Program-made: the position numbers and the translations under genes
Notes under the pieces: generated by a model
What the model was told of the DNA's origin: nothing
Databases searched by the model: none
What the model saw: only the letters and a program-made list of their open reading frames with translations
In this document: positions 7,242 to 22,694 of the stretch, in pieces
Layout of the letters: the number at the start of each line of letters is the position of its first letter
Position numbering within the stretch: position 1 is the stretch's first letter
Assembly: GCA_964016885.1 (NCBI GenBank)
Contig: OZ024742.1
Location: forward strand, 264,244,001 to 264,308,000
Source of the DNA: Eledone cirrhosa
Lineage: Eukaryota
Direction: 5' to 3'
DNA: 64,000 bases

Positions 7242-7513
7242 TTAGTTATGTAATAAACAACATAAGATAATTATTTCATTTACCAAAGGTTTCACGAACA
7301 CAGACGAGCCTGACACAGACGTCTGACTTCGGTCGTCAGAATGAAATTTCATTCTGACGACCGAAGTCAGACGTCTGTGTCAGGCTCGTCTGTGTTCGTG
7401 AAACCTTTGGTAAATGAAATAATTATCTTATGTTGTTTATTACATAACTAAAAAGCTCTGTACCCTACATAGAGCACTCTCTTTTCCTTTACCTTTCCTA
7501 CGGAAACACTTCA
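7242..7513 (+). mobile_element. pLTR mini-element in (TA)n, perfect 210-bp palindrome (7242-7451)
   Basis: Arms of 105 bp checked base by base; centre 7346/7347; unique tail to 7513. Confidence 0.9.
7347..7419 (+). ncRNA. Type I hammerhead ribozyme
   Basis: tttcatt CTGACGA c cgaa..cagacg..cgtctg..ttcg t GAA ACC ttt GGT A aatgaaa; 7-bp stem I. Mirror copy on the minus strand. Confidence 0.9.
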
Positions 7514-7524
7514 TATATATATAT

Positions 7525-8773
7525 ACTAGCAGAATGGCCCGGCATTACTCGGGATTTGCTCTATGGTTCTTATATATTTGATATATATTTATCCTTATCG
7601 AGCCTCGTGAAATAAATACGTTTATTTATATTTTGTTATTGTGTATGGAAAAATATCTGTACACGAATATATAATTATATATATATCTATATATCTAAAA
7701 CAGAGAATGTCTGTCTGTCAGCTCACTAAAACTTGAGAACCACCCAACCGATTGTTTTCAAACTTTGCACATGTAATATTTATGGTCCTAGGGACCGCAT
7801 TAGGCGATTTAGCGATCTCTCTCTTATAATTCGTAGTCTTTCTTTTTAGATAGATAAATATATATAACGTTGCGCCCTTATAATATCTGTCTGTATGTCT
7901 GGCTGTCTGCATTATGTCATTATGACGCGATCAGTGTGTGTGTGTGTATATATATGTATCGTAATGCACACAGCAAGACATATAGCTTTCCTTCCCCTCT
8001 TCCAGCGTCTCTCTCTGTCTCTCTCTCTCTCTCTCTCTCTCCCGCTATCCCCCTCTTTTAGTCTGTCTGTTTCTTTCTCTCTCACTCTTTCTCTTTATAA
8101 CTCACTCACATTAATACTAAAGAGTTAAGGTATTGTTCTCAAAATAAATAATATTTTTATATTATGTGAGATAAAGCCTTTACCATAAAAAAATATAGTA
8201 TATATAGAGTAATGTAAATGCTAAAGGGTTAATTCCATCAGACCATGTGAGAGAGTTTATAATCACTCACGCAGACATACACACTCACGTATGCAAACGC
8301 ACACAAACTCACACACACACGCAATAGTTATTCCACTTTCATGTATCTTTGACGCATACAACTCTCAAAAGACGGCGTCTGTCACTCTCTCTCTCTCCCT
8401 CTCTCCCCCGCTATCCTCCTCTTTTAGTCTGTCTGTTTCTTTCACTCTCACTCTTTCTCTCTGTAACTCGTTCATATTTATCTCCTCTATCGAAAAGAAA
8501 AACGCTGTGACGAATGGGGAGAAGGAGGAGGAGGAGTAGAGAGCCACTTCTTCACTTCGCCTCTCCGTTTCTTTCTCTCCCCTCTCACTCCATCATTATG
8601 TACAGACATTGGCCATTTCACTAATTCGATCCCTAGGTCAGAATAGTTTGAAATCTTTTTTGCTCAAAACACTTCTGGGGCCATACGGGTTTCATGTGTA
8701 AAGTTTGAAAAAAAAACGGTTGGGTACTTCTCGAGTTTTACGGAAACAGACACACAGACAGACATCCTCTGTT
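7525..8773 (-). mobile_element. Non-autonomous Helitron with a nested opposite-strand Helitron 5' piece (from ~7685)
   Basis: Minus-strand 3' end CCCGAGtaatgCCGGG ccattctg CTAG|T (hairpin plus CTAG); 5' part ..AACAGAGGATGTCTGTCTG. Confidence 0.75.
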
Positions 8774-9949
8774 ATATATATATATATATATATATATATA
8801 TATATATATATATATATATATATATATATATATAATTATAGAAGAAATAAAACGATACAAACGGAACAAAAGAAATTAGTTTCGGTGTTCAACCACCCTT
8901 TTTGAGCACAGATATCCAAGGATATCAAAGTTTTTTTGTATAAGGATAGTAGATCACTTCTCTCCACAAGTACCAGCAAAAACAATATTTAAACTTCTCC
9001 CCCTCCCCCTCTCTCTCCCTCTCTCTGAAATACTGGAGATAAACTATTAACCATTTCATAATGCTCTTTCTCTTACAGACACATTCTGTTTGTAAATCCA
9101 CAGGCATTAAAAGCTTATAGTTCAATGACATACCTTTAAGATTCTTCAGTCGGCCTCTAGGTTCCGCTGGGCATTTAAAAGAGGTTATCAGATTAATCTT
9201 ACAAAGTTAATGTTTGCTTCTCAGATTAAAAGTAACAGCTGTCAATTATTTAGCAATGGGCCTTATTCTGTTCGTCTTTTACCGTTACATCTGAATCAAT
9301 TACCAAATTAATCACCATGGAAAATATCACGGTAGCAGAATTAATGACGACGTATGTTGTTTCCAGTGAATTTAACTTTTATCTCCATACATATTTTTCA
9401 TCATTTATGTATTTCATATATATATATGCGTGTGCGATTGTCTATGCGTTTTCACACACACACACACGCACGCACACACCACACACACACAGACACAGAC
9501 ACACACACACACACACACACACACACACACACACACACACACACACACACACACACACACACACACACACACACACACACACACACATAAATAGTTGTAA
9601 GATTTTTATATGCGTCGCGTTAAAGATATGATTATACGAAGAAAAAAAACGCATCATCATACAATGTAATCAAATATGACAGATTAGTACATCTGTAAGG
9701 ATGAGGCTCGATAGAAATAGAGCTGAAATTTTGTGAGCATCATACAGAGTTGATGGTAGGGGTGTACTCATCTTTTCCCATTATCTACAGGTGTTTACTT
9801 GGGAATGTTTGTCTTGTATAAATATATATATATATATGCGTGTGTGTGTGTGTCCCGGGTTCAATCGGGGGTAACCACAATAAGTAAGGTACTCAGAGTA
9901 TATAATGTTTTATATATATATATATATATTTATATTATATAAATGATTT

Positions 9950-10300
9950 CCACACGATTAGAACTGATTCATTTGTTTGAAATCTTCAGGCATTTCTGAT
10001 GATTTCCTATTTGTTGCTTCGTCTTCACGAGTTGAAACAGAGTACCAGATTGGCGGTTAGATCTTATCCATTTACATCTGAAATTCCTAAATGCAAACGC
10101 ATATTCTACTTTAATAGTTTCTTCCCTCACACAACTCGCCTATGGAATTATGTTCTGGCTTCTTGGTTTCCTGACCATTAAACTTTGCAAAAATTCAAAA
10201 GCAGTATCAATCGTCATCTTCTCTACCCTGGATTTGTTTTCGTTGTCTTGTCATTCTCCCTTCTCAGTAGCCCCTTGAGTTTTAGTGGGTTCATTGTCTT
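9950..10300 (+). mobile_element. CR1/Jockey-group LINE 3' end
   Basis: NSFFPHTTRLWNYVLASWFPDH*TLQKFKSSINRHL is a typical CR1-like ORF2 C-terminus. Confidence 0.7.
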
Positions 10301-10371
10301 GCTTATATATATATATATATATATATATATATATATATATATATATATATATATATATATATTTATTTATT

Positions 10372-20189: not shown

Positions 20190-20400
20190 GACATTCTTCT
20201 TCACAAAGTTCAATCTCCAACAGCAGAGTTTATAGAGCAAATGTCGAGTCCAGTCCATAAGTTGACATTATCAAGCCAGGGTTTTAGCTGTCGCCCTTTG
20301 CTTCTCTTACTGGCTAACAGTCCTTCTAGGTATAACTTACTCACACCACGCGTTGATCTTTTATATGACTATACAGTTTAAGTACTTCTAGCCTTTGAGG
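20190..20400 (-). mobile_element. RTE-like LINE 3' fragment
   Basis: LYLEGLLASKRSKGRQLKPWLDNV resembles the GxxxGKRxRGRxxxxWxDxI motif. Confidence 0.55.
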
Positions 20401-21165
20401 TGGTTTAAGTTTCATAATACTTTGTTTCGTGATGGGAGACTACAGTGGACAAGATTATTCAAGGTGGGGTCGGGAAAACGTAGAGAATAGAAGGATAGTA
20501 GTGTAGATATCTCGACCGGAATGTTCACATAATCCATGAACACATACTGCGGGCCATGTTAACTTTGCTGTTTAAATGAGTGGCCAAGCTTATGTTGTTA
20601 TCAACAATTACTCCCAAGATTCTGATGTTGTTGGATGCTAGGAGGATTTCACCTGTGGAAAGGGAATATGAGAGTTTCAGTGCATTATATATTTTTGATT
20701 CTAGTAGTGCAATAGCTGTCGCATGTGTGTGTTGCTGTTCAGAGTATTGTAGTTTTTTTGTTTTTTTTTTGTTCTTTTTTATTTTTCTGGTAATAAATTT
20801 TCTGTTTTCGAGGATTCGGCACTTAGTTTTGTTCACAGATCTTGGTGTGTTTAGCACCTATATATGTAACAGTGTCTACAAATATCTGCCATGTTGTTTT
20901 GATGTTGGGTGGATATGTGTACGAGTTGGAAAGACCAGTCAACATGTGATAGATTGTTAGTGATTGTATTCCTGTTGGAATTATAAAGATCTATGTTATC
21001 AAATGGGTGAGCTGGAGAGAGGTGGTTGGGTTTAGCTTTCGACTGATGGAATCTCAGGTTACAGAGAACCATGTCGTGGTCTGATAGTTTTTTTTCTGCT
21101 GTAATATATATAGAGAAGGGTTTTAACATCTGACGATTCCTGGCTACGTCAAAGACATATATCAC
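20400..21165 (-). mobile_element. CR1/L2-like LINE remnants
   Basis: LSDHDMVLCNL (APE end) and IRILGVIVDNNISLATHLNSKVNMARSMCSWI (RT thumb). Confidence 0.65.
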
Positions 21166-22370
21166 ACTGACACGTGATCTCCTTTATGCAGACGACTGTG
21201 ATCTTATTAGCCACTTAGAAAAAGACCTTCAACTCCCGAGGGATTGCTTCTCGGCAACATGTGACCAATTTGAGTTGACAATCAACCTGAAAAAGACAGT
21301 GGTGATGTACCATCATGCATTCGGAAAGCCATATATCCCTCCATCTATATCAAAGGAAAGATTGAGGGATAGTGTTGTCTACCCGTGTAGTACTCTCTCC
21401 AGCTGATGAAGCGGTACGATACCGGCTGTCTAAAGCTTCCGATGATTTTGGTTAGCTGGAGAAGCGCTTGTGGTCAGACATCGGTGTAAGCACGAAAGTC
21501 GAAGTGTATCAGGTATGAGGGCTTAGAGTCTTGCTCTATCGATATGAGACATAGACAACATATTGTCGGTATATCCAACGTCTCGAACATTTCCACCTAC
21601 AATCCTCATGTAGGTCTCATACATCATCACTGATATGCTGCTGCGGGCATGTATGCCAACCGTCGGGACCATGATCATGAAACAACGCCTGCGGTGGACA
21701 GGTCATATTGTACACCTAAATAACAGCAGAAACCCCAAGCGAGTTCTGTATGGCGAATTGTTGCAAGGCAAACGGTGCACACCACACAAGCATCTTAAAG
21801 ATACCTTGAAGAATACCTTGAAGAAAGCCAACAACAATACAGAAACAGGAACATCTTGCAACCGATAGAGCCTAGATAGAGCCTAGTGACGAAATTTCAT
21901 TGCTCCCGGTGTTGAGGAATTTGGAAATAGGCAGAGGGTCTATGCCGAAGTGGAGCGAACAGCTAAATATATGATGGGTGTTAGTCCGCTCCCAGAACGA
22001 GGTTTGAAAGAAACTCTTACCTGTCGGGAATGCGTATGTGTATGTATGTCAAAGGCTGGGTTATTGAGCCATAGCAGACGTCATACTCACATAAATAACA
22101 CTTTAAGTACCCCATACACCTTGATTTTGAATGTGGCATCTGCAACAAAATATGCGACTCTACAAGAGGGCACACAGCACGACAACGCATGCAATGTCAA
22201 CGAGACTGAAGCAGGTGGAAAACTTAACTGTACACTGTGTGGTGTGGCATGTAAGTCACTTCCTGGTTTGATGCGCCATCTAAGACGACATCAGCGACAG
22301 CAACTTTAATAACAGATTTTTGTAGGTGTCTATTTGTCTGTTCACGGACACGAGTATGCTTTCCACTATG
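21166..22370 (+). mobile_element. RTE/BovB-like LINE 3' half with C-terminal C2H2 zinc fingers
   Basis: DLLYADDC, LTINLKKTVVM, QRLRWTGHIVHLNNSRNPKRVLYGEL, CREC...GLLSHSRRH, CTLC...GLMRHLRRH. Confidence 0.85.
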
Positions 22371-22493
22371 TATATACGTATATATGTAAATACAAATACA
22401 CACAAACATATATATATACGCACACACACACACACACATATATATATATATATATATATATATAGTTATGTAATAAACAACATAAGGCAATTA

Positions 22494-22553
22494 TTCCATT
22501 TACCAGTGGTTTCTTAAAAGCAAAAGATTTTGCTTTTAATCATCAGAATGAAA
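22494..22553 (-). ncRNA. Type I hammerhead ribozyme
   Basis: ttcatt CTGATGA ttaaaagcaaaa tc ttttgcttttaa GAA ACC act GGT A aatgga. Confidence 0.88.
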
Positions 22554-22694
22554 AAATCCTGGTCTGTTTATTGAATTTGGATTTTAAAAACCTTTTCCGA
22601 CGGAATTACTTCATTCACACACACACACACACACACACACACACACACACACACACACACACACACACACATATATATATATATATATATATAT

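Follow-up and report, generated by a model that had tools for sequence, protein, structure and literature searches.

Type I hammerhead ribozymes in an Eledone cirrhosa contig: probable Penelope-like element insertions with one diverging stem II

Type I hammerhead ribozymes (HHRs) occur in the pseudo-long terminal repeats (pLTRs) of metazoan Penelope-like elements (PLEs), and motifs of the same type are found at three loci in a 64,000-nucleotide stretch of Eledone cirrhosa DNA (contig OZ024742.1), called here the window and numbered from its first letter. We refer to the copy at the 7347 locus as copy A, that at 19420 as copy B and that at 22494 as copy C. The described PLE hammerheads (Cervera and de la Pena 2014, PMC4209133; review PMC6765202) resemble these copies: they too are of type I, with core boxes intact, a weak stem III that is partly palindromic and a helix II of more than the usual length. 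They are also alike in being dispersed from truncated elements, singly or as opposite-strand pairs, and in their high variability within a genome, with compensatory changes. Helix II here has an 11-pair base and 26-39 nt, compared with 7-8 bp in Schistosoma HHRs. The G10.1-C11.1 pair, which is highly conserved in HHRs (PMC4209133, PMC3088659), is not kept, and stem III has 3 bp and a triloop, so that the copies are not strict minimal HHRs.

The surroundings of the ribozymes also have described counterparts. A tail, an inverted 5'-truncated copy and a (TA)n bias make up a pattern reported for endonuclease-bearing (EN+) PLEs (PMC8557442, PMC3846280, PMC11167929), and for the anole PLE PAc it was shown that both strands of AT-rich DNA are nicked by the element's protein, with reverse transcription beginning at two internal sites on either side of the tail (PMC11167929). 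The window copies are alike in having two fixed 3' ends flanking a tail on one arm only, a head-to-head palindromic junction and an AT-rich microsatellite target. They differ in that the tail is about 62 nt long rather than 30-40, no open reading frame (ORF) is attached in the window, and the HHR lies about 100 nt before a putative start codon, whereas in PAc it overlaps the start codon. Animal non-LTR retrozymes (PMC7229834; bioRxiv 10.64898/2026.07.22.740005) are similar as short, non-coding type I HHR repeats related to PLE pLTRs. Retrozymes are defined by tandem units (bioRxiv 10.64898/2026.07.22.740005), whereas the window holds no head-to-tail arrays of the copies, whose ends are set by the tail sites and not by a monomer unit.

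We read copies A, B and C as 5'-truncated insertions of one abundant EN+ PLE family, with a stem II that is a single helix changing by compensatory substitution and by change in loop length; we put the probability of this reading at roughly 0.8. An earlier sequence-only reading had seen one HHR scaffold carrying three unrelated stem II modules. The ribozymes themselves are where that reading placed them. Our descriptor (CUGANGA, stem II, GAAA, ACC-nnn-GGU, A, stem I) found type I motifs at 7346-7420(+), 19420-19487(+) and 22494-22553(-), together with a fourth, 7273-7347(-), which is the inverted twin of the copy A HHR. All three copies have the CUGANGA/GAAA/UH core, stems I to III and the opening at stem I that characterize type I. 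Their membership rests on this descriptor and not on an Rfam model; an Rfam scan of the window at E<=5 had 156 matches, and the 150 of them listed include no hammerhead family. The Rfam matches were of microRNA (miRNA) type, driven by microsatellites and hairpins, and we discarded them. A stricter scan returned 11 HHR-like motifs in the window, two of which (51385 and 19793) look weak, and none in 200 locally shuffled windows.

The claim that the three stem II sequences differ completely is refuted by alignment for copies A and B and is unlikely for copy C. Stem II of copy A (39 nt) aligns with that of copy B (38 nt) with one gap and 23/39 identities, a result equalled by none of 5000 dinucleotide shuffles and by 2 of 5000 shuffles that kept the hairpin. 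By blastn the two copies align end to end across stem II (70% over 178 columns, E 6e-13). Free alignment of copy C stem II was not significant against copy A (336/5000 shuffles) or copy B (732/5000). When the 11-nt arms are anchored at the core boxes, copies A and C have 10 identities, 9 transitions and 3 transversions in 22 positions (p=0.015 by permuting pairs, the lowest value of the 15 pairs tried). The identity of these arms (10/22) is close to that of the tails of the same two copies (38/67, Fisher p=0.46), and since the arms have diverged no more than the tail, no exchange of stem II is needed. The tail likeness was reached by 0/2000 shuffles, with a blast match at 22590-22614, and the segment following the HHR is far better conserved (29/31, p=0.0002). 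Stem II thus appears to diverge at the background rate while its pairs are kept, and it would be the constrained scaffold that needs explaining.

Four of nine listed sequencing runs were aligned, with an 80% likeness cut-off, to positions 7347-7512, the forward part of copy A only. Runs X1 (2596 contigs) and X7 (3366 reads) come from organism A, X5 (4 contigs) from organism B and X6 (6 contigs) from organism C, the organism letters being unrelated to those of the copies. Run-level figures for loose ends and variants are among the rows listed, with 210 loose-end rows and 73 variant rows beyond these; the stem II comparisons for X5, X6 and one X7 type were made by eye. X6 record 13, from organism C, covers these positions in one piece but lacks 13 letters in stem II (9 at 7373 and 4 at 7383), leaving 26 nt with 11-nt arms and a 4-nt loop, which is the geometry of copy C. 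It carries the copy C letters at 7362, 7398 and 7399, and its 3' arm matches copy C at 8/11 positions and copy A at 7/11. In organism B, an X5 contig has a 30-nt loose end at 7400 that matches the copy A arms at 16/22 and the copy C arms at 12/22, and all 10 of its differences from the latter are transitions. A less economical parse would take the first seven letters of this loose end as a core box, at the cost of seven bases left unpaired ahead of GAAA. A break at 7400 is seen in 34 X1 contigs, whose consensus ends in the copy C 3' arm, and the copy C type is therefore a subfamily. C-type letters also occur in X7, in 37/212 reads at 7362 and 111/581 at the partner position 7398, unphased. Stem II lengths of 39, 38, 30, 26 and 26 nt can thus be written in a single register, which lends no support to the idea of stem II as a cassette in which unrelated modules are freely replaced. 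The sequence-only reading had said that stem II types alignable through intermediates, with no excess of compensatory change, would speak against it; the intermediates are there, and the lack of compensatory change is not.

Pairing has mostly been retained across these differences. Folded alone, stem II has -14.8 kcal/mol in copy A (z -3.4), -8.5 in copy B (z -1.6) and -8.8 in copy C (z -4.0), all energies and ensemble shares in this work being computed values only. The perfect 12-bp stem described for copy C does contain 12 complementary pairs, but they are separated by a 2-nt spacer, and the stem folds as 10-11 bp with a tetraloop. In the three-row alignment, both partners are substituted in 5 of the 11 basal pairs, and pairing holds in 85.7% of cells compared with 29-49% when the partners are slid (22/500 shuffles, from three sequences only). 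Among the 40 variant rows listed, the 17 variable positions of the 73-nt HHR include none of the 12 core positions (p=0.030) and none of these plus the four C/G positions of stem III (p=0.008), a test weakened by the 80% likeness filter and the 73 further variant rows. Copy B appears by eye to lack one stem I pair, missing from both strands, and this paired loss also fits selection on pairing. The proposal of selection on structure therefore receives moderate support from covariation and core sparing, and selection on the fold has likely acted in the source elements.

The folds of the individual copies are less uniform. The full HHR fold is the minimum free energy structure for copy A only; its share of the monomer ensemble is 0.046 for copy A, 1e-6 for copy B, which is predicted to misfold, and 0.052 for copy C. 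Self-duplexes through stem III have -5.1, -5.1 and -8.2 kcal/mol for A, B and C. A conserved "trap" hairpin between the 5' strand of stem I and the core box was considered and dropped, since four of the six HHRs lack it and it is weak in the other two (-1.8 and -0.5 kcal/mol). For the 10.1-11.1 position, which forms the base of stem II, copy A has C.U, copy B A.G and copy C U-A. X7 has G in 93/212 reads and A in 64/212 at 7361, facing mostly U at 7399. A natural U.U at 10.1-11.1 is among the cases reported in PMC3088659 and PMC7229834.

The insertions are built alike at their ends (Table 1). In copy A the inverted arm is identical to 7347-7450 at 104/104 positions, the two forming a spacer-less 208-bp palindrome, and the 62-nt tail is on the forward side only. 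Copy C is not free-standing, since its HHR sits in the inverted arm of an insertion with a tail-only forward part, and copy B is a lone forward copy with a tail and no inverted partner. Five of the six flanks of the three copies are directly (TA)n, and the sixth is (CA)n followed by (TA)n. As had been noted from the sequence, a 23-mer is shared by the 7347 and 22494 copies; it is identical at all positions compared, 7428-7450(+), 7243-7265(-) and 22463-22485(-), and the longest exact match between the two copies is 24 nt. The further statement that both inverted arms stop at the same base beside (TA)n holds as well: both stop at the equivalent of 7450, with a one-base ambiguity because the final TA is shared with the (TA)n target. 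The HHR ends 31 nt upstream of this short 3' end in copies A and C, and 7450 is likely a site of initiation of reverse transcription. The 5' ends of all three copies (7347, 19420 and 22553) lie at, or at most 3 bases from, the start of stem I (n=3 only), and the HHR family at 41891 has no such 5' end.

Table 1. Features of the three insertions (window coordinates)
Feature	Coordinates	Strand	Details
(TA)n target, left of copy A	7175-7242	.	From sequence
Copy A inverted arm	7243-7346	-	Full second HHR and post-HHR segment, no tail; stops at short 3' end
Copy A type I HHR	7347-7419	+	Stem I 7347-7353 with 7413-7419; CUGACGA 7354-7360; stem II 7361-7399; GAAA 7400-7403; stem III ACC-UUU-GGU 7403-7411; predicted cut after A7412
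Copy A stem II	7361-7399	+	39 nt; 11-nt basal arms, 8/11 paired, C.U at base; 17-nt apical part
Copy A post-HHR segment	7420-7450	+	Most conserved part of the family, 29/31 identical to copy C; ends at short 3' end 7450
Copy A optional tail	7451-7512	+	About 62 nt, to long 3' end 7511/7512; ACG-GAA close to end
(AT)n target, right of copy A	7513-7525	.	
(TA)n target, left of copy B	19358-19419	.	
Copy B HHR	19420-19487	+	5-bp stem I; stem II 19432-19469 (38 nt, A.G at base); predicted cut after A19482
Copy B post-HHR segment and tail	19488-19594	+	70% and 62% identical to copy A
(TA)n right of copy B	19595-19610		
(TA)n target, left of copy C	22439-22462	.	
Copy C inverted arm	22463-22553	-	HHR 22494-22553; post-HHR segment 22463-22493 to short 3' end
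Copy C HHR	22494-22553	-	Stem II 22514-22539 (26 nt: 11-nt arms, 4-nt loop); stem III ACC-ACU-GGU; predicted cut after A22501
Copy C forward remnant	22554-22615	+	Tail only, head to head with inverted arm; (CA)n(TA)n beyond long 3' end

The arm stop common to copies A and C is a family-wide feature, because (TA)n loose ends recur behind 7450 in the runs: in 25 contigs of X1, 256 reads of X7 and one contig of X6, with one X5 contig ending so behind 7446. X1 depth is maximal at 7419-7442 and drops from 541,000 to 298,000 across 7449. TA-rich loose ends also recur behind 7511, in 38 X1 contigs and 285 X7 reads. The two-end tail signature is thereby confirmed in three organisms. We infer that the pile-ups of X7 read ends at 7421 and 7424, which fall on an AATT, are restriction ends from restriction site-associated DNA sequencing (RAD-seq) rather than products of ribozyme cleavage, and the pile-up at 7505 is probably a RAD-seq restriction end too. 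A scan for the exact pattern from stem III to the post-HHR segment gave 0 matches in metagenome contigs and 0 in viral contigs.

The published biology of PLEs suggests how such copies could arise. The PLE protein would nick AT-rich DNA and start reverse transcription at either of two internal sites flanking the tail, the equivalents of 7450 and 7511. The cDNA would pass through the uncleaved ribozyme and, here, halt close to where stem I begins on its 5' side. The inverted, tail-less arm would come from a second cDNA or from snap-back copying. In the source elements, purifying selection would act on the fold while the sequence of stem II drifted about as fast as the tail, and the weak 3-bp stem III would favour dimer cleavage, which is among the subjects reviewed in PMC6765202, or help from a protein. 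The three genomic copies are probably inert.

Several features point to a PLE as the likely parent: the two fixed 3' ends with an optional tail, the (TA)n bias, the HHR within a pLTR and, in copies A and C although not in copy B, an inverted 5'-truncated partner next to the 5' end. The tails of A, B and C (at 7500, 19578 and 22600) end in ACG-GAA and 3-4 further codons, with ATG in place of ACG in 312/1672 X7 reads (19%). Among 30 homologues with a motif of the YSxKNIP type, 16 have ME seven residues before it. These letters hint that the tail end may lie just inside the PLE ORF, as in PMC3846280, and the ACG may represent the parent ORF's start codon, near-cognate or lost. A profile of 28 homologues gave 13 matches in the window, to ORF remnants with reverse transcriptase (RT; YRDD) and GIY-YIG-like motifs. 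From these motifs the RT-GIY-YIG ORFs may be taken for PLEs, of other families than that of A, B and C. For the RT part of one window ORF, 125 homologues were retrieved at E<=0.001, and the 120 listed include one from a bryozoan. Pfam and NCBIfam gave a name to 0/7 of the window PLE proteins and no significant match for 3 window proteins; homologue P0093 alone matched RVT_1 (E 4.6e-7), and a profile search of PDB sequences returned nothing significant. We also considered whether, as in D. virilis, an intron ends at the edge of stem I, and rejected this, there being no AG acceptor in the 17 upstream letters that X6 record 13 offers.

A number of observations weigh against our reading of one PLE family with a single stem II helix. 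The covariation count comes from three rows, and next to the 22/500 for pairing the count for further pair types is 349/500. The 10.1-11.1 pair is non-canonical or unpaired in many copies, and U is the majority letter of A-like X7 reads at 7365 (156/214) and 7366 (158/218); pairs 5-7 would therefore open as an internal loop, so that pairing there is not universal. The in-register p=0.015 for A and C would not survive correction over all 15 pairs, the values for B-C (p=0.18) and A-B (p=0.059) are not significant and marginal, respectively, and the comparison of B with the unrelated family at 12695 (D) also reaches p=0.044. Each of the intermediates, in X5 and in X6, comes from a single contig, and X6 record 13 has 14 substituted letters, of which 12 are listed. 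In 155 X7 reads (agreement 0.76) a loose end at 7400 agrees with the known 3' arms at no more than 3-5 of 11 positions and may be a truly different stem II, and a 2-contig X6 loose end is left without a place among the stem II types. No ORF is attached to any of the copies and no PLE profile match lies within 3.9 kb of them; the suggestion of PLE parentage comes from structure and from the ACG-GAA at the tail end.

The further proposal that the ribozyme is needed for propagation does not follow, as all three copies, with the scissile bond flanked on both sides in each, were written from RNA that spans the cleavage site. What is conserved may instead be a protein-binding or RT-initiation structure in the pLTR, with the HHR a passenger whose catalysis is not required for copying. 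We hold this possibility only tentatively, and it is compatible with our reading, from which it differs solely in the target of selection. Across 7413 the depth of X7 stays level (551/199 before it and 585/210 after), the most conserved part of the family is 3' of the ribozyme, and the variety at 10.1-11.1, where most X7 reads set G or A against U, would also suit it. In the anole PLE, insertion in vitro is normal for HHR catalytic mutants, and the HHR does not cut unless protein is present (PMC11167929); PMC8557442 reports that PLE clades without canonical HHRs attain very high copy numbers and raises the possibility that HHRs merely parasitise PLEs. Against a mere passenger, the core and stem III positions are spared among the variants listed, and several different families of the window have intact cores.

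A second alternative concerns how stem II changes and not what is selected. Template switching, whether in DNA replication or in reverse transcription, could periodically rewrite stem II by copying one arm onto the other, with selection only filtering the outcome; paired changes and new stem II types would then arise in single events, and some subfamilies would have truly replaced stems. Template switching is able to create and repair RNA stems (PMC8794818), and the perfect 12-pair inverted repeat of copy C with its 2-nt spacer, the X5 loose end with a perfect inner repeat and a 2-nt spacer (by eye) and the loose ends exactly at 7400 (34 X1 contigs and 155 X7 reads, the X7 type being without clear alignment) would suit it. 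Such repair would mimic compensatory change, and the perfect hairpins with 2-nt spacers leave room for it. We nevertheless think it improbable: arm copying alone leaves the near-transition-only, in-register differences of copy C from copy A and X5 unexplained, the stems of A and B are imperfect and alignable along their length, and loose ends at the conserved GAAACC edge are also expected from divergence under the 80% cut-off. Very improbable, in our view, is a non-autonomous retrozyme or a SINE-like (short interspersed element-like) repeat spreading by circular RNAs cut from tandem HHRs. The copies are short, non-coding and start at the stem I edge, and PMC7229834 and bioRxiv 10.64898/2026.07.22.740005 describe animal retrozymes as carrying type I HHRs and as proposed derivatives of PLE pLTRs. 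The window copies are single or head to head, however, their ends are off the cleavage site, and the two-end tail with the head-to-head pattern is that of PLE insertions. Among the joints listed for X1 there are at least five between opposite strands and one skip, and none that goes back.

The window, AT-rich eukaryotic DNA with GC of 0.32-0.44 in which dinucleotide microsatellites and long inverted repeats are abundant, contains further HHRs and mobile elements. A second HHR family lies at 41724-42150, where arms 41716-41889 and 41891-42064 face each other head to head as a palindrome with a 1-nt spacer. It is flanked by (TA)n runs and has a tail on one side, an insertion anatomy like that of copies A and C, and a lone copy at 40759-40871 is 96% identical. 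The HHR at 12695-12788(+) has a 61-nt stem II, borderline similar to those of A and B, and a fully palindromic stem III; its partner at 12453-12496(-), with the core box deleted, precedes a PLE ORF remnant at 11423-12109(-). Homology of stem II with the other HHR families of the window was not accepted, D being borderline (50-210/5000 shuffles) and E and F giving none. Downstream of the HHR at 48318-48370(+) come a (TA)n run and an RT-GIY-YIG ORF truncated at its 5' end, 48453-50449(+); HHR and ORF are probably separate insertions. A decayed HHR-like motif with an altered GAAA box lies in the 3' region of this ORF, at about 50580-50640. Upstream of the same HHR, an 11-mer at 48281-48291 recurs by eye among the 17 letters that stand upstream in X6 record 13, and may be a common pLTR motif or chance. 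Another HHR-like motif, at about 58860-58975(-), has a stem II of about 80 nt and a palindromic stem III, was seen by eye but missed by the descriptor, and is upstream of PLE ORF remnants at 56870-58369(-).

An inverted PLE ORF duplication at 34808-36674, with arms of 466 and 452 nt (98-99% complementary) and a 40-nt spacer, ends at an N assembly gap. Near-perfect head-to-head palindromes beside microsatellites (23874-24433, 41851-41929 and 47257-47350) are the source of the top Rfam miRNA matches and are probably mobile-element inversion junctions rather than miRNAs. The first of these interrupts a short ORF, 23449-23916(+), whose motifs may mark a Helitron Rep/helicase fragment. A dispersed SINE-like repeat of about 190 nt, with many copies (25238-25431, 30561-31087, 40924-41346, 56295-57800 and 61125-61711), presumably resembles a cephalopod SINE.

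On alignment, the original claim of exchangeable modules mostly dissolves, and no new mechanism is demonstrated. Among the papers listed by our literature searches, none concerned stem II exchange in PLE HHRs. The HHR-bearing PLE end family is a further case of an already known PLE hammerhead type. Cleavage by PLE hammerheads is weak in vitro and could be dispensed with for insertion in the one system tested. Being of high copy number, with a relaxed 10.1-11.1 pair and a stem II that is long, covarying and variable in length, the present family would suit studies of covariation and cleavage. A bolder and unlikely reading is that a PLE family present in at least three organisms tolerates almost any 10.1-11.1 pair, rebuilds stem II by template switching and also carries fully replaced types, such as that of the 155 X7 reads. 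If it were true, the family would be a natural, tree-datable experiment on how a helix is rewritten and on whether PLE hammerheads must cut.

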